DNA of 64,000 nt from Spirochaetia bacterium (lineage in GTDB: Bacteria > Spirochaetota > Spirochaetia > UBA9216), in assembly GCA_963677925.2 (NCBI GenBank), contig CAXXYH010000004.1, forward strand, positions 2,304,001 to 2,368,000, in the 5' to 3' direction. Shown in pieces: positions 935-45,094 of the stretch. The position numbers and the translations under genes were made by a program. The notes under the pieces are model-generated. The model saw only the letters and a program-made list of their open reading frames with translations. It was not told the DNA's origin and ran no database searches. Within the stretch, counting starts at the first letter, position 1. Every line of letters starts with the position of its first letter.

Positions 935-1723
935 ATGGATGCAAAACTTCTAAAGAACAAGAGCGAGGAAGAACTCTGGACTCTTTACAAGAAAAAAAGA
1001 GATCCTATTATCAGGGAACTCTTTGTAAAGCAGTATGCCCCCCTTGTGAAGTATGTAGCCGGAAAGGTTGCGGTAGGTATGCCGCATAATATTGAATTTG
1101 ATGATCTGGTTCAGTATGGTGTATTCGGCCTTTTTGATGCGATAGACAAATTCGACCCTGCAAAACATGTAAAATTTAAAACATATGCCGTTACCAGGAT
1201 CAGGGGAGCAATATTTGATGAACTCCGATCCATTGACTGGGTTCCCAGATCAGTCAGGCAGAAATCAAGAGAAGTTGAGGATGCCGTACATCGCCTTGAA
1301 TCATCACTTGGCAGGGCGGTTTCAGACAGTGAAATTGCAAATGAAATGGGTATGGATCTGCAGGAATATCAGAAGACAATACTTAAAATCAGCGGCACCT
1401 CCATTATGTCTTTAAATGATGTCTGGTACACTGGTGAAGATAACGACAAGGTTTCTATTGTCGACAGCATTGAATCTCCACAGGGCCTTAATCCCGATAT
1501 AATTGTAGAAAAAGATGAAATAAAACGTGTAATAATTGAAGCAATTAACGAACTGCCTGAAAAAGAGAAAAAAGTTCTTGTTCTTTACTATTATGAAGAC
1601 TTAACTTTAAAAGAGATAGGCAAAGTTCTGGAGGTAACTGAATCCAGAGTTTCGCAGCTTCACACTAAGGCGATTATGCGGCTTAGAGCCAAGCTTACTA
1701 ACCTTAAAAAAGGAATTATGTAG
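935..1723 (+). CDS. fliA: Flagellar RNA polymerase sigma factor sigma28 (FliA/WhiG)
   Basis: [30 protein letters not shown] and [21 protein letters not shown] motifs. Confidence 0.97.
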
Positions 1724-1726
1724 ATT

Positions 1727-3673
1727 ATGGTTCAATTGTCGGAATTAAGAGAATTTATGCGTAAGCAGGCTGAATCGGACCGGGCAAGAAAAACCGTCCA
1801 GGTCAGCGGTCCGACAATTGAAGAGGCGCTTGAGCAGGCCTGTATTGAACTGGCTCTTCCCTTAAAAAAGATAGAATATGAAGTTCTTGAGAGTCCCTCA
1901 GGCGGTATCCTGGGGTACGGAAAAAAGAACTGCCTATTAATAGCCTATGAAATAGCGGCACAGAAGTCTGATGATTTTGATGAAGACGGTTTTGATCTCG
2001 ATTTTGATTCAGGTTTTTCGAGTTCCGAAGTTCCGAAAGACAGAGACGGCGAAATTATTGTAAAACTCAGACAGGAGGGAGTATTTATAAAGGTTTCCCC
2101 GCCTGTCGGAAAAGGAAGTCCTGCAACAGAACGTGATGCCGCGATGAAGATAAAAAGCAGGGGTATTACCGATTATGATCAGCATATGATGGTAAGCGCT
2201 GTTAAGCAGGCGGATGGTGAGCAGGTTCGAATAGGCGATTATGCTTATAACCCGATGAATGATTCAATAATTTCCGTGAATATTATCGATCTCGAGATGA
2301 AGGCTAATATTGTTATTAAAGAGCCCGGTCCTGGCGGTGCGGATGTTAACACAGAAAGCATCATAGGCCTTTTAAAAGCCAATGGAATAATCCATGGAAT
2401 TGATGAAGAAGAGATTGGGCGTATTGAAGATCATCCTGTATTTGATACGCCTCTGCTGGTTGCAGAAGGTTCGAAGCCTGTTAACGGTAATGATGCTCGG
2501 ATAATTTATAACTTTGACAGTCAGAATCTTCAGGTTTCACTGAAAGAGCGGCAGGGGAAGGTTGATTTCAAGGAAATGAACAGAATCCAGAATGTTGTTG
2601 AAGGACAGATTCTGGCAAGAAAGGTTCCTGCGGAAGAAGGCAAACCAGGAAGAACCGTAACCGGGAAATTGCTTCCAGCTAAATCCGGAAATGATATAAG
2701 TTTTAACATAGGTAAAAATGTAAAACTTTCAGATGATAAGCAGACAGCGATAGCAGAAATAAACGGACAGGTTATTATTATGGGTGATAAGCTCACAGTT
2801 GAACCTGTCTACCTTGTTCAGGGCGATGTTAATCTTAAATCAGGCGGAAATATAATCTTTCTGGGATCCGTTATAGTTAAAGGCAGCGTAGAAGACGGTT
2901 TTAAGGTTAAGGCTTCTGGAAATATTGAAGTTATGGGTAATGTAGGAAAGTCTGAGATTGATGCAGAAGGTGAAGTTATTGTTCATCAGGGTATCAACGG
3001 AAAGACCGAAGGTCAGGTCCGGGCCGGAAAAACTGTATGGTCGAAGTTTATTGAGAACGCAAATGTTGAATCCGGAGACCTCGTAGTAGCGACTGATGGA
3101 ATTATAAATTCGAATGTTGTTTCAAACCGTATGATTGTATGTATGGGTAAGCGTGCCACTATAGTTGGAGGAAGACTCCGTGCTACAGAGGAGATACATG
3201 CTAAAACGCTCGGTTCCGCATCAGGATCAGAAACTATTCTTGAAGTAGGCTGGGATCCGAAAAGCAAGGAAAAACTGGTTAATTTAGAAAAGAATATGGA
3301 GGATCTGAATACTCAGATTGATGATATTGATAGAAACATCCTGACGCTTGAAAACTTCAAAAAGAAAAAGAAAAAACTTCCTGAAGATAAGGAAGAATAT
3401 CTGGCAGAGCTGAAACAGCAGAAGCAGGATGTTTATGAAGAAACTCTCGAAGTAAAAGAAGAAATAGACGGTATCAAGGAATATCTTGCTTCTCTTAAAT
3501 ATGTTGGAAAAATATCAGCTGCTTCAAAGGTATTCCCCGGTGTAAGGGTAGTTATCAAGGATGCTCATATGAAGGTTCGAAATGATTATAACAGTGTAAC
3601 TTTCATTAATGAAGAAGGTGATGTTCATACCGTAAAATATGAGGCTCCGGAAGAAGATTTTTCAAGGAAGTAG
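1727..3673 (+). CDS. fapA: FapA family (DUF342) flagellar assembly protein with N-terminal Jag-like domain
   Basis: VDFKEMNRIQNVVEGQILARK and GNIIFLGSVIVKGSVEDGFKVKA beta-helix; N-terminal GPTIEEALEQA...GGILGYGKK. Confidence 0.85.
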   Translation: MVQLSELREFMRKQAESDRARKTVQVSGPTIEEALEQACIELALPLKKIEYEVLESPSGGILGYGKKNCLLIAYEIAAQKSDDFDEDGFDLDFDSGFSSSEVPKDRDGEIIVKLRQEGVFIKVSPPVGKGSPATERDAAMKIKSRGITDYDQHMMVSAVKQADGEQVRIGDYAYNPMNDSIISVNIIDLEMKANIVIKEPGPGGADVNTESIIGLLKANGIIHGIDEEEIGRIEDHPVFDTPLLVAEGSKPVNGNDARIIYNFDSQNLQVSLKERQGKVDFKEMNRIQNVVEGQILARKVPAEEGKPGRTVTGKLLPAKSGNDISFNIGKNVKLSDDKQTAIAEINGQVIIMGDKLTVEPVYLVQGDVNLKSGGNIIFLGSVIVKGSVEDGFKVKASGNIEVMGNVGKSEIDAEGEVIVHQGINGKTEGQVRAGKTVWSKFIENANVESGDLVVATDGIINSNVVSNRMIVCMGKRATIVGGRLRATEEIHAKTLGSASGSETILEVGWDPKSKEKLVNLEKNMEDLNTQIDDIDRNILTLENFKKKKKKLPEDKEEYLAELKQQKQDVYEETLEVKEEIDGIKEYLASLKYVGKISAASKVFPGVRVVIKDAHMKVRNDYNSVTFINEEGDVHTVKYEAPEEDFSRK

Positions 3674-4539: not shown

Positions 4540-6360
4540 ATGAAAGATAACCGACTACTAAAGACATTTATCAGCGATACAAGCGTGCATATAAATAAGA
4601 TTAATGATCTTCTTATTGCGATGGAGAATAATAGTTCTGCTCCAGAAGCTGTAAATGAACTTTTCAGGTATGTTCACTCAATCAAATCAGAGGCTGCTTA
4701 TCTCGGTATAGATGATATTTCAGAGACTGCACATGATCTTGAGAATATCCTTGAAACAGTAAGAAGTTCATCATCTGGCAGAATAGAGGAAAAGGATCTC
4801 ATTCTGTTCTGCTACAAGGCCGTAGATAGAATCTCAGAGCAGTTGAAACAGGTTAAAGTTTCAGCTTCCGGCAACTTAAACGATGTTAACAGTAATGAAG
4901 AAAAAAAATATACAGATTTTGAAAAACTTCTGCTCAGGGAAGCTGAAGATCGTGATGAGAAATTGTATGAAGTATGTTTCAGTATTGCTGAAGAAGAGTC
5001 AATGAAATATGCAAGGGCATATCTGGCTCTTAGCAATCTTGAAATGAAATATAATGTCATTAAAACCATTCCTGAACTCGATGAAAATGAAGAGCACTTT
5101 CCTGAAAAAATTACAGTAGTACTTTCATCCGGCTCTGATGAGCAGGAAATTATCAGGGATTTAAATATTGATCAAATCAGTGATTTAAGTATTAAGAGAC
5201 TGAGTTTTTCCGATGAGTACGATGCCAGATTAATAACCGAAGCAGCTTCCGATTTAAGTAAAAACAAGGATAATATTTATAATGTTGATGCTTCAGAGAT
5301 AGATGAAATCAACGATTATCTGGTCGAGATTCGACGCAGAATATCGGGGCTTTCCGGATCATTCGGAGACTCTGCTGAACTGAACAGTATGGAAAATGAA
5401 TTAAAGGGATTAGAATCAATTTCCAGCGGAATAGCCTCGCTTATGGACCGCCTTAAAATGGTTCAGTTTGCTGATCATTTTGCCTCTTACCGGAGAATGG
5501 TTCGCGACCTGGCCGATAAATCCGGCAAAAAGATAGAGCTTTTCATAGAAGGAGATCTAAAAATTTCAAGGGATTTTGCTGAATACCTTAAAGAGCCGAT
5601 AATTCAGATTCTTAAAAATGCGATAGTACACGGAATTGAAGCTCCGGAAATACGTAGCAGTAACGGGAAATCTCCAACAGGTAAAATTACTCTCGCTGTG
5701 AGAAAAACTTCTGAGGCTACAGTGATAACAGTCAGTGATGACGGTGCCGGAATTGATGATAATATATACAGCAGTAATGGAATAGGCCGAAGTGAGCATA
5801 CTGAGGTTCTGAAAATTATTTCTCAACCTGGATTCAGTTCACTTTCCGAGAGTAATAAACTCGGCGGTAGAGGGGTAGGTCTTGACCTTGTTGTACATGA
5901 GATTGAAAAAAAGAAGGGCCGGCTGGAACTTGTTAACAATCCCGGCCAGGGATGTATTTTCAGGATGGTTTTCAGTGACTCAAAAAATGAGACTAAATTT
6001 CTGGTTTTGAAGTATCGTGAGAATAACTACGCTGTTGAGATGAAGTCCGGGATTGAAGCTGAAACATATAATCAGGCTGCAGTCTCCAAAAATGGAATAA
6101 TTTTTGAGATAGACGGTATTGGACTGTACTGTCCTGATGGACGTGTTTCAGATCCTGACAATCAGACTTCGGACTGTAATACAATGATTTATATAAAGAA
6201 TCCAAGCGGTGAGGGCTATGTTGTTTTTGAAGAAGCCCTTTTTGAAGTAAAATACGACAAAAACAGGCTTTTAAAGACGGAACCCGCTGGAAATAACTCC
6301 AGCAGGGTTAATGTTGACAGTCAGCCTGCCGATTTTCTTCTTCTTGAAATGAAATTTTAG
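4540..6360 (+). CDS. cheA: CheA-like chemotaxis histidine kinase (divergent)
   Basis: Hpt LFRYVHSIKS, N-box KNAIVHGIE, G1 DDGAGID, F PGFS, G2 GRGVGLDLV. Confidence 0.8.
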   Translation: MKDNRLLKTFISDTSVHINKINDLLIAMENNSSAPEAVNELFRYVHSIKSEAAYLGIDDISETAHDLENILETVRSSSSGRIEEKDLILFCYKAVDRISEQLKQVKVSASGNLNDVNSNEEKKYTDFEKLLLREAEDRDEKLYEVCFSIAEEESMKYARAYLALSNLEMKYNVIKTIPELDENEEHFPEKITVVLSSGSDEQEIIRDLNIDQISDLSIKRLSFSDEYDARLITEAASDLSKNKDNIYNVDASEIDEINDYLVEIRRRISGLSGSFGDSAELNSMENELKGLESISSGIASLMDRLKMVQFADHFASYRRMVRDLADKSGKKIELFIEGDLKISRDFAEYLKEPIIQILKNAIVHGIEAPEIRSSNGKSPTGKITLAVRKTSEATVITVSDDGAGIDDNIYSSNGIGRSEHTEVLKIISQPGFSSLSESNKLGGRGVGLDLVVHEIEKKKGRLELVNNPGQGCIFRMVFSDSKNETKFLVLKYRENNYAVEMKSGIEAETYNQAAVSKNGIIFEIDGIGLYCPDGRVSDPDNQTSDCNTMIYIKNPSGEGYVVFEEALFEVKYDKNRLLKTEPAGNNSSRVNVDSQPADFLLLEMKF

Positions 6361-6372
6361 TTCAAATAATTC

Positions 6373-6399
6373 TAAAGTTCAAAGCAGGTTTACCGATAT
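6373..6399 (+). promoter_or_regulatory. sigma28 (FliA) promoter
   Basis: TAAA-15nt-ACCGATAT with extended TAAAGTT -35. Confidence 0.7.
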
Positions 6400-6404
6400 T
6401 AATC

Positions 6405-6472
6405 TTAGGGTTGAACACCTTATTTGATAATTAACGGTATGCACATAACGTCCAGGCATACCGTTTTTTTTT
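6405..6472 (+). ncRNA. Candidate sigma28-dependent small RNA (~65 nt)
   Basis: Lies between the sigma28 promoter and an intrinsic terminator; no ORF; small 5' hairpin TAGGGT/ACCTTA. Confidence 0.5.
6433..6472 (+). terminator. Intrinsic terminator
   Basis: AACGGTATGC-13nt-GCATACCGTT running into a T9 tract. Confidence 0.85.
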
Positions 6473-6490
6473 GCTTCAGTCTCCCTCAAA

Positions 6491-7501
6491 CTAGACAGGT
6501 AGAAGACAATTATCTGGTTTCTTAAAGAAATCTTTATTTTCTTCAAGAATTTCATTAATAGTTTCCTTAAGTCCGACCACAGCGGAGGCTCCAAGCGGAA
6601 GTAAAGCCCCGCCTCTGCATAGGTTCAGGATCTGGCCTTCTACGATGCTTTTCATTTCATCTTTTGGAATTGCTCCAAGTTTGAGTGAAGCCATATCCAT
6701 ACCGCCGGTTAATACCAGACGATCTCCGTATTTCTTTATAATACCTTCAATATCATTGATAGTTTGTGCAGATGTCCAGTGTTCTATACCGGCCTCGATC
6801 ATTGATGGAATTAGATTTTCAATTTTACCGCAACTGTGAAACCTTAGAAAAATATTTTTCTCCTTGCCAAACTCGGTCAGCCTTTTAATGTGGGGTGCAA
6901 GTAGACTGTTCCAGACTTCGGTGCTGAAAAACTGATTTTCCTGATGTCCCCAGTCATCGTGCAGCTCTATCTGATCAACAGGGTAGTATTCAAGGATTTT
7001 TTCCATAACTCTAATCTTGTGATCAACTACAGCGCTGAAAAAGTCTGAGGAGGCTTCAGGTTCAATCAGCAGCGCCATACAGGCTTCAGACATCCCCATA
7101 AGTGCATGCATTCTTTCAAATGGACCGTTTAAAAGAGTAATATTTGCAAGTTTTTCAGGTACAAAGACATCCTTGTCTCTTTCTGCTGCGGCAGCCCAGT
7201 CTATAGCTTCTAAGTCAGGGAATTTTACCTGTTCTTTCCATTTCTTTATATCAGTCAAAATCGGCGGATACTCATGGCTTACTGTGGCTGCGCGTACGTG
7301 AGGCTGAAAAACCCAGTGAACACCGAACCAGTCAAAACCGGTTCCTCCCAGGGCCTGCTCGATCGAACCATCGCCTGGAGCCCTCTCAGCTATTTCGGGC
7401 GGAATATAGTTGACTTCATCCTGCCTTGCATTAGGAATCCACTCGGGAACCTGATGAGTCAACACTCTAATATAGTTCTCCTTAGGGGTTAAAGTTGACA
7501 T
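6491..7501 (-). CDS. Uroporphyrinogen decarboxylase / MtaA-CmuA methyltransferase family protein
   Basis: DWFGVHW, GPFERMHALMG, HDDWG and FHSCGKIE motifs. Confidence 0.8.
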   Translation of the reverse strand: MSTLTPKENYIRVLTHQVPEWIPNARQDEVNYIPPEIAERAPGDGSIEQALGGTGFDWFGVHWVFQPHVRAATVSHEYPPILTDIKKWKEQVKFPDLEAIDWAAAAERDKDVFVPEKLANITLLNGPFERMHALMGMSEACMALLIEPEASSDFFSAVVDHKIRVMEKILEYYPVDQIELHDDWGHQENQFFSTEVWNSLLAPHIKRLTEFGKEKNIFLRFHSCGKIENLIPSMIEAGIEHWTSAQTINDIEGIIKKYGDRLVLTGGMDMASLKLGAIPKDEMKSIVEGQILNLCRGGALLPLGASAVVGLKETINEILEENKDFFKKPDNCLLPV

Positions 7502-7578: not shown

Positions 7579-9414
7579 TCAAACTATTTTTTCAGAAAGT
7601 CTCAACAGTGCCTGTCCGGCAAGAATTCGATGATAGGCGGCTGCCTCATTGATGCCGAAATATAGTTTTTTAGAATTGGAAAGATAATCGCTGCCGGTTG
7701 TTTCGAGAATATCATTAAGAACCGGCTGCAGGATAAACCCTGCAAGTTCCTTGGCGGGAATTGAAGATATGCTGCGGTCAATTGATTCAAGTTTTTTTAA
7801 ATACTCCGAAAGTTCAGGTGTATCTTTGCTTATCAGTTTCATTAGCTGAATGGCTTCACCAGATAGGGTTTCAAGATTTTTACATTCATGAATGAGATTT
7901 TCAAGCATTGAAATAATACCTTTCAGCTCATTCCGGCCTGATTTAAATCTATCACTTTTAACTTTGATCTTAATATTTTCAATGGTTTTTCTCTGTTCCG
8001 GTGTCTGAAGAAGAGTATCTGATGATAGAAATTGCATTCCGTCTATCTTTATACCATATGACGAAAGATTATAAGTTGCAGTCGAACTATCATTTTTTAA
8101 CTGGTTTTCAAACCACCACTTGTATATTATAAGCCGCTTGTCTGTTAAGGTTTCAGTACCCGAATTATTGTCTGTTTTGAAGGATGAAGTGCTGTTAAGA
8201 TAGGCTGCAGTAAGCGAAGATGCCGGTGTAAGTCTTGTAGAGGACATTGCAATCAGTCTTGAAGAAAGGCTGTTTTTATAATGAGTTTTATTTCCTGGAT
8301 ATCCAAGATCAAGTCCAGCCGCATAGATTTCACGGCAGCCGAGTCTTCTGGCCAAATCCCAGGCACTCGTTGCTACAGATCCTCCGGCACCCAGAACTCC
8401 ATTAATTCTGACATGTTCTTCAAACAGACTTCCAAGCGGAAAAACAGATTTGCAGAAGTATACAGGAAGAGAGCAGTTTCTGAAAATTCCAGGATGGGTT
8501 GAGCTTTCAGATACAAGAATACTGCTGCCGTCAAACAATCTGTCTGACAGCAGGTTGTCAAGATGCCTGGAGTTCAGATACTGCGGATCAACAACTACTA
8601 TGAAATCAGGTGCAATTCGGGCATCTTTGAAAGCTCTTACGGCAGTATCTACACTGATTATTACAGCTCTTTTTTTCATTTCGGGCATCAGGGGCATTAA
8701 CGAATCAAGCGAAGGTCCTGCTGCAGCTACAATTCCCGGAATGCCGGGGAAACGGCCGAACCACTCACTGATATCGCCTGCATGAATCAGGGTTGGAATG
8801 TTGCGGAAAAGATTTCTGACCCAGGATTTACCGAAGCGGTTTATAGTATTCCGGTTTGTTTCCTTCTTAGCCACATATTCATTTATATTTTCTTCCAGAC
8901 TGCTGAAATATTCTTCATTTATTCCTGTCAGCTGACGCAATTTGAAGGTGTATACCGGAAAAACATCAATCTGTTTCAATATTCCCTGTATTGACGAGGG
9001 TACGGTATCAAGAAGAAAACCGGTTCGCGGTGATGATATAACCTCGGTGAAATCTCTTGCTTCTAGTGCTTTTAAGAATATTCCGGGCTCAGGTTCTGCA
9101 ATTAATATTTGAAGTTCCGGATAGTTTTCAAGAAGTGCTTCTATATGATAGCCCAGTCCGAAGCCGAAGACTACACAGATACCTGAGCCGCTTATTCCGC
9201 AGTTTCCTGCAAGCCTCGATGCTTCGGCAGACGGAGCTCTTGAGGAGTGCAGCCATACTTTATTCAGTTTTCCGGACACGGTTCCGTTTACACTTACAAC
9301 TATTTCAAGATCTTCAGATGGTTTGTAGCGGGACAATATTTCAGTTTCGAATCCCTGATATTTCTCTTTCAGTGCATCAAGGTTTTTCCCGGCAAATACC
9401 GACATATTATTCAA
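7579..9414 (-). CDS. Motility associated factor (Maf / DUF115) flagellin glycosyltransferase family protein
   Basis: FGFGLGYH, AAGPSLD, PDFIVVVDP, GGSVATSAWDLA, GLDLGY. Confidence 0.85.
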   Translation of the reverse strand: MNNMSVFAGKNLDALKEKYQGFETEILSRYKPSEDLEIVVSVNGTVSGKLNKVWLHSSRAPSAEASRLAGNCGISGSGICVVFGFGLGYHIEALLENYPELQILIAEPEPGIFLKALEARDFTEVISSPRTGFLLDTVPSSIQGILKQIDVFPVYTFKLRQLTGINEEYFSSLEENINEYVAKKETNRNTINRFGKSWVRNLFRNIPTLIHAGDISEWFGRFPGIPGIVAAAGPSLDSLMPLMPEMKKRAVIISVDTAVRAFKDARIAPDFIVVVDPQYLNSRHLDNLLSDRLFDGSSILVSESSTHPGIFRNCSLPVYFCKSVFPLGSLFEEHVRINGVLGAGGSVATSAWDLARRLGCREIYAAGLDLGYPGNKTHYKNSLSSRLIAMSSTRLTPASSLTAAYLNSTSSFKTDNNSGTETLTDKRLIIYKWWFENQLKNDSSTATYNLSSYGIKIDGMQFLSSDTLLQTPEQRKTIENIKIKVKSDRFKSGRNELKGIISMLENLIHECKNLETLSGEAIQLMKLISKDTPELSEYLKKLESIDRSISSIPAKELAGFILQPVLNDILETTGSDYLSNSKKLYFGINEAAAYHRILAGQALLRLSEKIV

Positions 9415-33804: not shown

Positions 33805-35052
33805 ATGAAAAGAATCAGTACCTACATGCCGAATGACGATATGCAGTACCGTATGCGGCTACAGGAATGGAAGATGGGAGATCTTCAGTCTAAGATCGCA
33901 GAGCAGACACGGGTGAAGGAACTACGTGATGATCCTATTGCTGCAGCTCATTCCACACGGTATCAGTCCAAAATATCACGGTTAACAAGATTTACAGAAA
34001 ATATTGAAACAGTGCAGAGTGATCACCGGATTGCGGAAGGCTACATCACCAGTGCAAATAATATCCTGCTTAGAATTCGCGAACTGGCTGTACAGGGCGC
34101 AAACGATACATATTCAAAAGAAGATAAGTCCTATATGGCTGAGGAAGTTGACCAGCTGCTTAATGAACTTGTTGAAATATCAAATGCTACAAACGGGAAC
34201 GGTCAGACTATTTTTGCAGGTGATAAAAATAAGGGGCTTGCATTTAGGGCGGATTCCGGCAATGTTCCAGGTGCTTCAGGTACAAGAATTACCTCCGTTG
34301 AATATACTGGAACTGTTAACAAGCAGGCTGCTGAAATTTCAGATCATAATCTTATTAATGTAGATTTTCCCGGCAACAGGGTATTCTGGGCCGAACAGCA
34401 GCAGATATTTTCTTCTGTGAATGCTTCCGAATACAGGGCTCTTGAAGACTCATCAATTCTTATTGATGGAGAAAAAATCGATATAAAATCAGGTGATAAT
34501 ATTCATGCTGTTATTTCCAGAATAAACAAGGCCGATATTGCAGTAAAAGCTTCTTTAGACCCTGTTACAAGTTCAGTTATCCTAAAGTCTACTATGCCTC
34601 ATCAGATATGGCTTGAAGACGGTGGTGATGGAACTGCTCTAAAAGATCTTGGAGTAATTTCCGCCTCAGCGGGCGGCCCTCCAGCCAACATCCATCGCGA
34701 TGCCCGTGTTTCCGGCGGTTCATTATTTGATATGGTCATAAGTCTGCGCGACAATCTGTATGCAGGAAATACTATTGATATCGGCGGAAAAGCTCTAAAA
34801 GGCCTTGATCTTGCTCATAACAACATGTTATCCGAACTTGCACGCCTTGGTGCTGAGGATGAACGAATGCAGGTAGTGAATGAACGTCTTTCTTATGAAA
34901 TACCGAATATTCAGCAGATGGATTCCAATGCTGTAGATCTTGATTTTGCCGAGGCAATAACTGAACTTAAAATGATGGAAAGGACTCAGCAGGCTACACT
35001 GCAGACTGCTGCTAAAATATTAAAACCAACACTGCTGGATTATTTGAGGTAA
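33805..35052 (+). CDS. flgL: Flagellar hook-associated protein 3
   Basis: DDPIAAA, RIRELAVQGANDT, DLDFAEAITEL, PTLLDYLR. Confidence 0.96.
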   Translation: MKRISTYMPNDDMQYRMRLQEWKMGDLQSKIAEQTRVKELRDDPIAAAHSTRYQSKISRLTRFTENIETVQSDHRIAEGYITSANNILLRIRELAVQGANDTYSKEDKSYMAEEVDQLLNELVEISNATNGNGQTIFAGDKNKGLAFRADSGNVPGASGTRITSVEYTGTVNKQAAEISDHNLINVDFPGNRVFWAEQQQIFSSVNASEYRALEDSSILIDGEKIDIKSGDNIHAVISRINKADIAVKASLDPVTSSVILKSTMPHQIWLEDGGDGTALKDLGVISASAGGPPANIHRDARVSGGSLFDMVISLRDNLYAGNTIDIGGKALKGLDLAHNNMLSELARLGAEDERMQVVNERLSYEIPNIQQMDSNAVDLDFAEAITELKMMERTQQATLQTAAKILKPTLLDYLR

Positions 35053-35513
35053 TGATGTTAACAGTAAATACAAAGGCTTATGGAACGATTGAAGTTGATG
35101 AGCGCCAGAAGATAACTTTTTCAAACGGACTTTTCGGTTTTGAGAACCTTCATGAATTTGTCCTTCTTGATGCTCAGCAGCAGCCTTTTTACTGGCTGCA
35201 GTCACTTGAAGTTAAGGAAACAGCCTTTGTAATGATAAATCCGGGAGTTTTCAGAACAGATTACCATCCGGAAATAATTTCAGCCGATATGGTTGATCTT
35301 CAGCTTGAGAATCTTAAAGATCCTTCCGCGCTAATTTTTGCAATTGTAACCATCCCTGAAAACCAGCAGAAGATGTCTGCCAATCTGCAGGGCCCTGTTA
35401 TCATTAACAAGGAAAAGAAAATAGGTAAGCAGAGCATAACCATTGACTCCTGTTGGAAAACGAAGCATTACATTCTTGAAGAACTGGCAGGTTCAAGAGG
35501 TAAGGCATGCTGA
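35052..35513 (+). CDS. fliW: Flagellar assembly factor / CsrA antagonist FliW
   Basis: [24 protein letters not shown]. Confidence 0.95.
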
Positions 35514-35740
35514 TACTTACCAGAAAAATAAATGAAAGCATTACTATAGGTGACAATATAGAAATTTCAGTAGTAGAGATTAAAGGAGATCAGGTTAAAA
35601 TCGGAATTAATGCACCGAAAGAAATAAAAGTTTTCAGAAAAGAAGTTTATGTGGCTATACAGAAAGAGAATGAGGAAGCTGCGGCAAGCAGTGCTCTGGT
35701 ACTTCCCGAAATTACAGATCTGATTCGTGATAAGGAATAA
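35507..35740 (+). CDS. csrA: Carbon storage regulator (translational repressor)
   Basis: [18 protein letters not shown]...[17 protein letters not shown]. Confidence 0.97.
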
Positions 35741-43733: not shown

Positions 43734-43755
43734 ATAACCCTCCTTGATAGGTTAA

Positions 43756-43774
43756 GAAGGCATCCCTTGCCTTC
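43756..43774 (-). promoter_or_regulatory. CsrA-binding hairpin in the flaB leader
   Basis: GAAGGC-AAGGGAT-GCCTTC, GGA in loop, 22 nt before ATG. Confidence 0.7.
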
Positions 43775-43936
43775 ATTTTTTGCATGGCAGTGCAGTAAAC
43801 AAGAAGTTACTCGCGCTTCTCCCGTTCAGTATACCTGCACAACAAGGAGAAATTCCGACCGTTTGTATGACCGGAAAATCTCCTTCATCCACCATGCTAG
43901 AGGGTTTTTTTCAAAGAACGTAAACTCTACGTAAAA

Positions 43937-43965
43937 ATTATAGCCCTTTATCCAAGCAATTGCAA
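43937..43965 (-). promoter_or_regulatory. sigma70 promoter for the downstream flaB, overlapping the end of the upstream flaB
   Basis: TTGCAA-17nt-TATAAT. Confidence 0.6.
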
Positions 43966-44808
43966 TACAGATTGTGTTTTCATGTTAGCCTGAGCGAGCA
44001 TAGCAGTTCCAGCCTGAACAAGAATCTGATTCTTGGTGTAGCTGACCATCTGTTCAGCCATATCAGCATCTCGAATTCTTGATTCTGCAGCCTGGAGGTT
44101 CTCAGCTCCGATGTCGAGGCCTGATACAGCGTATTCAAGTCTGTTCTGGTAAGCACCAAGGTCTGCTCTCTGCTTGTTAACAGTTTTAAGAGCCTTGTCG
44201 ATTACACCAATTGACATGTTAGCGCTTTCAGGAGTCTCAAGAGACATGATTTTGCCGCTTCCGATTTCTTTAACACCAAGTGATGTTGAAGTCATTGTAC
44301 CAATGAATACTCTTTCTCTCTGATCAATGTTTGCGCCGATATGGAACCACATTGAAGCAGTAACAGTGTTTTCACCGGTTTCCTGTGCAAAACGTCCAGT
44401 CAGCATATTCATACCGTTGAACTGTGCATGTGAAGCGATTCTGTCAATTTCATCAACAAGCTGTGAAACTTCTACCTGAATCTGCATTCTGTCTTCTTCA
44501 GTATAAATACCGTTTGCAGACTGTACTGAAAGTTCTCTGACTCTCTGAAGTACATTCTGAGTTGACTGCAGATATCCTTCAGTAGCCTGAATAAAAGATA
44601 TGCCGTTTGCAGCATTGTCAGAAGCCTGATTAAGCCCTCTAATCTGTGAGCGCATCTTTTCTGATACCGCAAGACCTGAAGCATCATCGCCGGCTCTGTT
44701 GATTCTAAGACCGGAAGAAAGTTTCTCCATGTCCTTTGTTGTAGCAAGGTTTGACTGTCCAAGAGACCTGTTTGCAAACATTGCGCTGAGGTTGTGATTA
44801 ATAACCAT
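43948..44808 (-). CDS. flaB: Flagellar filament core protein FlaB (paralog 1)
   Basis: [33 protein letters not shown]; start after GGAGG at 44808. Confidence 0.97.
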
Positions 44809-44831
44809 AAAATCCTCCATGAAATTATATA

Positions 44832-44845
44832 GGGCATCCTTGCCC
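44832..44845 (-). promoter_or_regulatory. CsrA-binding hairpin in the flaB leader
   Basis: GGGC-AAGGAT-GCCC matches the canonical CANGGANG hexaloop, 23 nt before ATG. Confidence 0.75.
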
Positions 44846-44974
44846 AACTCTGCATACTGCAGAGCTATTAACCAAAAATAACTAAATCAGATTAAAAAAA
44901 GCCCGATAATCTGACTATGGGGGAGAATAGACAGGTTTACATGTCTGAAAAGTCTATTACTACCCTTACTTCTT

Positions 44975-45002
44975 TTTTCGACCATACCTATCTTAAACTT
45001 GA
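44975..45002 (-). promoter_or_regulatory. sigma28 promoter of flaB paralog 1
   Basis: TCAA(GTTT)-16nt-GTCGAAAA with AT-rich upstream DNA. Confidence 0.55.
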
Positions 45003-45094
45003 AACTAAATATTAAAAAAATAATAAAAAAAATCGAAAAAAAAGGGAGAAAAGAGAAGGGGATTCAGTTGTAAAGTAGAATTGTTTAGTGAGTT

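Follow-up and report, generated by a model that had tools for sequence, protein, structure and literature searches.

A candidate FliA-dependent small RNA with a near-invariant terminator loop in one class of spirochetes

Small RNAs that depend on sigma-28 and adjust flagellar synthesis have been reported from Escherichia coli (PMC10578931) and from Campylobacter (PMC11187230). The E. coli flagellar sRNAs are UTR-derived and were studied with Hfq (PMC10578931), whereas the spirochete RNA considered here is free-standing in most genomes and Hfq is undetected. Two of the E. coli RNAs, MotR and FliX, pair within coding sequences (PMC10578931), as the flagellin lead discussed below would. Neither in sequence nor in Rfam membership are the E. 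coli RNAs related to the spirochete one. In Campylobacter jejuni, CJnc170 (FlmR) is FliA-dependent and of the late flagellar class, its overexpression alters filament length and motility, and CJnc230 (FlmE) is RpoN-dependent (PMC11187230). CJnc170 comes from another phylum, and no Rfam family matched the spirochete RNA, which is kept across many families and has a near-invariant loop.

The RepG RNA of Helicobacter pylori reportedly pairs through the loop of its terminator hairpin with a chemotaxis-receptor mRNA, in a bacterium without Hfq. The likeness to the present RNA would lie in the use of a terminator-hairpin loop; the sequences are unrelated, and we know of no report that RepG is FliA-dependent. 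CopA/CopT and RNAI/RNAII are plasmid-borne cis-antisense pairs that meet by kissing loops, and their sequences are not kept across taxa. The resemblance is that of a stable hairpin with a short loop that starts the pairing, and a convergent transcript at the spirochete locus would carry an exact complement; unlike those pairs, the spirochete loop is nearly invariant across many families. The Termite-flg RNA motif is a cis-regulatory element upstream of genes, known beside flagellar genes in metagenomes of the termite gut, a spirochete-rich habitat. Rfam scans gave no match to Termite-flg in the window, which is the whole 64,000-nucleotide stretch of spirochete DNA that was analysed (E up to 10), or in 20 homolog loci (E up to 1).

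Does a FliA-dependent small RNA exist in spirochetes? The literature search found no sigma-28 small RNAs in this group, in line with a first-pass annotation that knew of none in free-living spirochetes. Positions 6372-6472 of the window, on the plus strand, hold a candidate small-RNA module in which a sigma-28-type promoter precedes a 5' hairpin; an AU-rich linker joins this hairpin to a 10-bp terminator, and T9 follows. To judge from its sequence and that of its relatives, this is probably a free-standing small-RNA gene transcribed by FliA, and its product a late-flagellar riboregulator that works through its loop and without Hfq. The features of the locus, and those elsewhere in the window to which the text refers, are as follows.

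935-1723, plus strand: fliA (sigma-28); NF004935 426.9 bits (cut-off 343), TIGR02479 295.2 bits; sigma-70 r2, r3 and r4
4540-6360, plus strand: CheA-like kinase gene; Hpt, P2 and HATPase_c, below the CheA equivalog cut-offs (NCBIfam)
6358-6360, plus strand: stop codon of this upstream gene, by sequence reading
6372-6380, plus strand: -35 element CTAAAGTTC, by sequence reading, 12 nt after the CheA-like stop codon
6392-6399, plus strand: -10 element ACCGATAT, by sequence reading, after an 11-nt spacer from the -35 block
6405-6407, plus strand: predicted transcription start, placed 6-8 nt 3' of the -10 box
6406-6411 with 6417-6422, plus strand: 5' hairpin (hairpin 1), UAGGGU/ACCUUA with a 5-nt loop, by fold prediction
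6423-6432, plus strand: AU-rich single-stranded linker UUUGAUAAUU, by sequence and fold
6433-6465, plus strand: hairpin 2, predicted intrinsic terminator stem-loop with a 10-bp stem and a 13-nt loop; arm AACGGUAUGC (6433-6442) pairs with arm GCAUACCGUU (6456-6465)
6448-6455, plus strand: loop octamer ACGUCCAG, candidate contact surface, near-invariant in homologs
6464-6472, plus strand: terminator T9 tract, by sequence reading
6491-7501, minus strand: URO-D / MtaA-like methyltransferase gene, convergent, its stop 18 nt beyond the T-run
7579-9414, minus strand: maf (MptE-like motility accessory factor); PF01973, Maf_flag10_N
44389-44418, minus strand: candidate site in the coding region of a flaB flagellin gene, a 9+9-nt perfect complement to the loop and the 3' arm of hairpin 2

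The first-pass annotation had placed a sigma-28 promoter 12 nt after the stop codon, and behind it a small 5' hairpin, an AU-rich stretch and a 10-bp terminator with T9. All of these are found where it had put them, and the next gene is convergent, as it had said. A sigma-28 promoter is recognised by a -35 of TAAA(GTTT) and a -10 of GCCGATAA about 15 nt apart, and CTAAAGTTC-N11-ACCGATAT agrees with this description; it is also an exact match to the core TAAA-N16-CCGATA. Could such a match arise by chance? The bare 10-position core is common, with 11 one-mismatch matches in the window against 4.9 expected and 80 exact matches genome-wide (three spacings). A weight matrix was taken from the promoters of 109 homologs, with the window's own family left out, and applied to both strands of the 5.04-Mb genome. 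The window promoter ranks first among the 42 sites at 17 bits or more. The same matrix gives high scores to sites 49 nt ahead of fliS, 20 nt ahead of an MCP gene and 166 nt ahead of a flaB gene, and the motif is therefore one carried by the late flagellar genes of this organism. In Treponema denticola a sigma-28 promoter with the -10 sequence CCGATAA was mapped experimentally for flaB2 (PMC9481697).

The promoter is also kept in relatives. By a simple box score, 109 of the 123 distinct homologs have sigma-28 boxes that score at least 17 at a fixed upstream distance, a level attained by 1.2% of 2460 dinucleotide shuffles and by none of the 123 reverse complements. The homolog logos read c-T-[A/C]-A-A-G-t-T-t for the -35 and G-C-C-G-A-[T/A]-a-a for the -10. 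The spacer is 11 nt long in 67/117 homologs and 12 nt in 49/117, with an unconstrained sequence, and purines are enriched at the predicted-start positions of the alignment (83/117 and 91/117). We conclude that the match of the predicted promoter is more than chance.

The sigma factor gene itself lies 4.6 kb upstream of the RNA module on the same strand. Among 151 genomes of the class, FliA is found above its family cut-off in 121. All 71 RNA-positive genomes encode FliA, and the RNA is present in none of the 30 FliA-less genomes, which come from only 6 families; 50 of the 121 FliA-positive genomes have no detectable copy of the RNA. The co-occurrence agrees with FliA dependence and is no proof of it, because relatives share ancestry and are not independent.

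The 68-nt RNA stretch folds at -17.8 kcal/mol (z = -3.46), a value equalled by none of 200 shuffles. Hairpin 2 has the makeup of an intrinsic terminator, a stable stem-loop followed directly by a U-run: its 10-bp stem is worth -13.1 kcal/mol and leads into T9, and a T-run also stands 3' of the terminator hairpin in the homologs that were displayed. A consensus terminator scanner missed this hairpin because its loop limit is 8 nt. In the MAFFT alignment of hairpin 2, 97.6% of 960 cells are paired, with compensatory double changes in two pairs and several G-U changes. Hairpin 1 reaches -4 kcal/mol or better in 111/116 homologs (mean z -2.29, each folded singly), and here the fold is kept and the sequence is not, the homologs being unrelated apart from a G-rich 5' arm. 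A model-fitted alignment gives double changes in 6/6 modelled pairs of hairpin 1; MAFFT with RNAalifold recovered hairpin 2 only. In many rows the covariance model sets hairpin 1 out of register, so the evidence for this hairpin comes mainly from single-sequence folding. Base pairs maintained by compensatory change mark the predicted transcript as a structured non-coding RNA.

Which part of the RNA is conserved as sequence? The octamer ACGUCCAG is invariant in 97 aligned homologs, partly selected by the same motif; at least 118 loci had been picked by a pattern containing the loop motif and the 3' arm, a bias that inflates apparent invariance. As a control, 20 weaker covariance-model hits that the exact pattern had missed were fetched. 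In these the octamer is kept in 16/20, the other four being single-base variants, and by eye a sigma-28-type box is kept in 20/20. The stems of the weaker hits vary more, with GGCGUG/CACGCC, GGUUUGC/GCAAAUC, added CC/GG or CUU/AAG pairs and G-U pairs, and the base after CCAG is variable. With the stem free to change and the octamer kept, the stem therefore serves structure, and sequence conservation belongs to the 3' half of the loop. The separation of the arms ranges from 13 to 47 nt across homologs, and where extra hairpins are inserted in the loop the octamer still abuts the 3' arm. The first-pass annotation had named the AU-rich linker as the seed, and would have counted a lack of conservation of promoter boxes and seed in relatives as a refutation. 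The promoter half of that expectation holds, as described above, but UUUGAUAAUU is not conserved outside the window's own family. What different families share is the 3' half of the terminator loop, and the linker is given up as the seed.

A blastn search with positions 6000-6560 matched a 40-75-nt core in 26/40 other genomes of the class, from many families. The full 561-base match is limited to a congener; in the other 25 positive genomes it covers 40-75 nt around the terminator hairpin at 80-96% identity. The flanks that were displayed have a common layout, in which a sigma-28-type box is followed by a variable hairpin and a short linker, and these by ACGGUAUGC-N-ACGUCCAG-GCAUACCGU with a U-run. 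At least 118 species-representative records contain an exact 21-nt core, each of them once. Among the matches listed, 115 carry spirochete titles, two are titled only 'bacterium' and one is labelled Syntrophaceae, and this last is the one record without a recognisable promoter. A covariance model built from nine sequences finds one locus each in 71 of the 151 sampled genomes of the class; the carriers make up 57/120 high-quality genomes and 50/88 genera. In a phylum-wide sample the RNA was found in 2/151 genomes, the window's genome counted, and in none of the 10 members of family f32 included there; the RNA family is therefore confined to part of one class. The family of the predicted RNA, uncatalogued until now, has one copy per genome and is widespread in one spirochete class.

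The genes beside the RNA say something about its independence. The upstream operon consists of fliA, a FapA-like gene, two small genes and the CheA-like kinase gene. That last gene had been read as cheA; the Hpt, P2 and HATPase_c domains are there, but no CheW-like domain was detected in the kinase and the scores stay below the CheA equivalog cut-offs, hence the term CheA-like. Across 70 loci the same-strand gene upstream of the RNA is an MptE-like maf in 52 and a cheA-like gene in three, the three being of the window's family; the remaining neighbours are unrelated genes or match no family. On the downstream side the convergent gene is CheA/cheA-like in 14/40 loci and maf in 3/40, again all from the window's family, and in many loci the downstream genes are unrelated. 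The RNA unit thus occupies the gap between convergent maf and fliA-cheA-like operons, in either orientation, and is flipped in the window's family; promoter and terminator stay with it whatever gene precedes. Because the unit was flipped with both carried along, the RNA is best regarded as a free-standing gene. It had been proposed that the RNA shares the terminator of the cheA operon. This is so only in the window's family; in most genomes the RNA stands behind maf and faces the cheA-like gene. A cis-regulatory leader is ruled out, because there is nothing downstream to regulate. Co-occurrence with maf does not discriminate, as MptE-like genes are found in 112/151 genomes, many of them without the RNA.

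To what class could the RNA belong? A scan of the window against Rfam 15, with E up to 10, gave no family overlapping the hairpins. A weak microRNA-model match (E 5.5, far below gathering) touches the first bases of the module only, and a scan of 20 diverse homolog loci with E up to 1 gave nothing at the element. A small protein-coding gene was considered and rejected. The ATG in GGUAUGC stands 13-18 nt from the loop motif in 106/116 homologs, and the distance uses the three residues modulo 3 almost evenly (33, 33 and 40 times), so that no conserved frame lies behind the promoter, in agreement with the first reading. A CsrB/RsmZ-type sponge for CsrA was likewise rejected: the window RNA has no GGA, as had been noted before, and the homologs offer nothing beyond the G-rich arm of hairpin 1. 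A CsrA gene is present at 35507-35662 of the window, beside fliW. The module looks the part of an Hfq-dependent sRNA, but the genome is without Hfq (PF17209 not found at 99.6% completeness) and this class was rejected as well. The 16-mer, in three spellings, was not found in the main texts of the openly available papers that were searched. The RNA family is new and unusually well conserved; the kind to which it belongs, that of FliA-dependent sRNAs, is already known from E. coli and Campylobacter. By the literature searched, the RNA is the first candidate of that kind in spirochetes. The small-RNA reading of the first-pass annotation is thus supported by promoter conservation, by the independence of the unit, by its occurrence only in FliA-encoding genomes and by the lack of an Rfam match.

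What might the loop pair with? The loop complement CTGGACG[TC] is rare, with 62 sites in the genome, none of them near a flagellar gene start; six of the sites are near crude gene starts, none flagellar. A duplex-energy ranking of 9783 crude translation starts, judged by their first residues only and with no family scan, brought nothing recognisably flagellar into the top 25. In the 3-kb flanks of homologs the loop complement occurs at 9 sites against 8.4 expected, and the pattern CTGGACGT-N0-30-GGAG-N3-11-ATG, searched over 151 genomes, showed by eye no excess over a reversed control. An MCP gene in another part of the genome contains 17 nt that are perfectly complementary to the linker and the adjoining 3' arm of hairpin 1. 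This target was rejected: with two mismatches in the congener's ortholog, the site is kept no better than its surroundings (86% identity), and orthologs were not found in four family members.

Of interest as a lead is the flaB site. The flaB gene (43948-44808, minus strand) reads AACGGUAUG, 10 nt, CUGGACGUU at the codons for N-G-M...L-T-G-R-F, and the predicted duplex, perfect over 9+9 bp, has an energy of -25.2 kcal/mol, a value that about 0.027% of random 51-nt windows equal. The match is perfect in the window's genome and in the congener. The protein motif is kept elsewhere, and in every genome examined those positions of the FlaB motif that the protein constrains fit the RNA, but the wobble bases of the site differ in five other genomes (14 paralogs). 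Of two stem variants, GCAUGCC fits its own flaB codon and GCACACC does not. The covarying stems of the weaker model hits also argue against the first half of the pairing. By a hand count of 150 of 172 matches over the 151 genomes, the GGACGU core is present in flaB in 12/57 RNA-positive versus 7/23 RNA-negative genomes. As a family-wide feature the pairing was rejected, since the wobble positions are not kept, and it is retained as a lineage-specific lead. Because these positions do not co-vary with the RNA, the interaction, if real, tolerates mismatches or is lineage-specific. We think it improbable that the octamer, with the 3' arm, base-pairs within the coding sequence of a single flagellin paralog at these FlaB codons.

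Could the RNA be real and FliA-dependent, with the octamer serving as a handle for a protein? It might then act as a sponge or decoy, or join a protein such as a flagellar regulator in a ribonucleoprotein. Such a role would suit an 8-nt loop motif that is kept above a freely covarying stem and always abuts the 3' arm, and the target searches did not find a conserved complementary RNA site. These searches were crude, so little can be made of the missing RNA partner. No candidate protein came to light, each RNA has a single motif and no GGA repeats, so that it is not a CsrB-type sponge, and the CsrA-type sites in flaB leaders (AAGGAUG in hairpin loops) look different. A protein handle is on balance unlikely. 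A purely local role seems rather improbable to us. Hairpin 2 would then be a bidirectional terminator, and the RNA a cis-antisense transcript that trims or destabilises the 3' end of the convergent operon by forming a duplex with it, the target being the fliA-cheA-like operon in most genomes and the maf side in the window's family. The unit does always lie between convergent genes; by our own count a convergent frame ends within 90 nt of the loop motif in about 28 of about 90 long-flank loci, several convergent stop codons fall within the complement of the T-run, and the 14/40 loci with a convergent cheA-like gene also fit. In at least 25 genomes, by a comparison of places, the RNA is 3-11 kb from fliA on the same contig and mostly convergent with it. 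A pure cis-antisense function, however, leaves the near-invariance of the octamer across families unexplained, the unit survived its inversion in the window's family, and many loci have unrelated genes downstream.

It is very improbable that there is no separate RNA, the stretch being the 3' UTR and terminator of the cheA-like operon with a promoter arisen by chance. In the window the element follows directly on the cheA-like stop codon with no terminator between, and the bare sigma-28 core is frequent by chance, but the boxes are kept in homologs at a rate that the shuffles do not approach, and they are still there when the upstream gene is unrelated and whichever way the unit is oriented. 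A plain 3' UTR of cheA can be set aside because the unit flipped with its own promoter and terminator. We give scarcely any credence to an inverted repeat that works as DNA, for example as a single-copy protein-binding or recombination site. One copy per genome and a conserved palindromic pair of arms would fit such a site, but the distance between the arms varies from 13 to 47 nt, some loci having entire hairpins within it, and several of the pairs are G-U, which pair in RNA and not in DNA. The element is moreover asymmetric, with the loop motif on one side only, a T-run and an oriented, conserved promoter.

We return to the riboregulator transcribed by FliA. RNA polymerase carrying FliA (sigma-28) would transcribe an RNA of about 60-65 nt that ends at its own intrinsic terminator. 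The RNA would be made late in flagellar assembly, once FliA is active, and the exposed loop octamer would be its riboregulatory surface. The most likely mode of action would be base pairing with one or several RNAs that starts at the loop ('kissing') and needs no Hfq; it is favoured because a seed held in a stable hairpin loop fits an organism that has no Hfq. The best candidate for a partner in the window's genome may be the coding region of the flagellin mRNA.

Spirochetes have periplasmic flagella with several flagellins, and their regulation is still being worked out (PMC9481697). The locus offers a concrete and testable candidate, a single-copy RNA of about 60 nt with a conserved FliA promoter and an eight-base loop. 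The covariance model and at least 130 sequences are a resource for a family that Rfam scans do not recognise, and the loop octamer and the FliA promoter jointly mark the locus clearly in new genomes. A loop that barely changes across dozens of families implies a conserved partner. If the flaB pairing is true, FliA would drive both flagellin and an RNA that tunes the choice of FlaB paralog, and hence the make-up of the periplasmic filament.

Directly 3' of the U-run of the small RNA, 24 of the 123 homologs carry ATGCC (e.g. at loci L006 and L008), and many others have a similar GCC or GTC; the window reads GCTTC here (6473-6477, directly 3' of the T-run). How might the ATGCC be read? It could pair with the GGCAU of the terminator 3' arm in read-through transcripts. 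Alternatively, it may represent the final codons of the convergent gene, the stop of which often lies within the complement of the T-run at the homolog loci. One small-genome homolog record has a tRNA gene directly adjoining the small RNA locus (L118:207-280, + strand). Among the neighbouring genes is a member of the fliA operon:

Window 1727-3673, + strand: FapA-like protein with Jag_N, FapA_N and FapA domains

Its Jag_N domain is N-terminal, ahead of FapA_N and FapA; this domain is also known from Jag/EloR, an RNA-binding regulator.

Elsewhere in the genome to which the window belongs, G000, an MCP gene contains 17 nt that are perfectly complementary to the hairpin-1 3' arm and linker of the small RNA (G000:C4:1912799-1912815, + strand, outside the window; BLAST E 0.012); they lie where the gene encodes its signalling domain. 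The MCP ortholog of a congener has two mismatches within this site. The loop octamer, the near-invariant 3' half of the hairpin-2 loop, looks under-represented in G000: with both strands counted, there are just 62 occurrences of CTGGACG[TC] and its complement, compared with the ~170 expected from a rough estimate based on composition. In G244, a genome carrying the small RNA, a loop complement, CTGGACGT, lies 25 nt 5' of an SD-ATG (G244:C30:19584-19623, + strand), on the same strand as the G244 copy of the small RNA and only ~330 nt downstream of it; G222, of the same genus, has no such match.

The runner-up sigma-28-type site in G000 lies outside the window (G000:C4:1258658, - strand; CTAAAGTATGG...GCCGAAAT, 21.1 bits). 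No open frame was found within 199 nt of it, and the first frame beyond has no Pfam match; the site may belong to another orphan FliA transcript, or to a long leader. A further site is near flaB:

Window 44974-45003, - strand: sigma-28-type box TTCAAG...GTCGAAAA, 17.1 bits with the matrix derived from homolog promoters

As this box is 166 nt 5' of the flaB start (44808), it suggests a long leader for this gene, resembling the 124-nt leader mapped for Treponema denticola flaB2 (PMC9481697). An additional exact TAAA-N16-CCGATA match (window 44883-44908, + strand; <17 bits with the same matrix) is directed away from flaB into an ORF-free stretch, and folding gave no clear terminator.

All three flaB leaders have a short hairpin (GGGCAAGGAUGCCC and similar) directly 5' of the Shine-Dalgarno sequence:

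Window about 44815-44850, - strand: flaB leader hairpin, AAGGAUG in loop
Window about 43740-43775, - strand: flaB leader hairpin, AAGGAUG in loop
G000:C4 about 2599085-2599110, - strand, outside the window: flaB leader hairpin, AAGGAUG in loop
Window 35052-35513: fliW
Window 35507-35662: csrA

fliW and csrA share the window with the first two of these hairpins; the hairpins of all three leaders have the appearance of CsrA binding sites.
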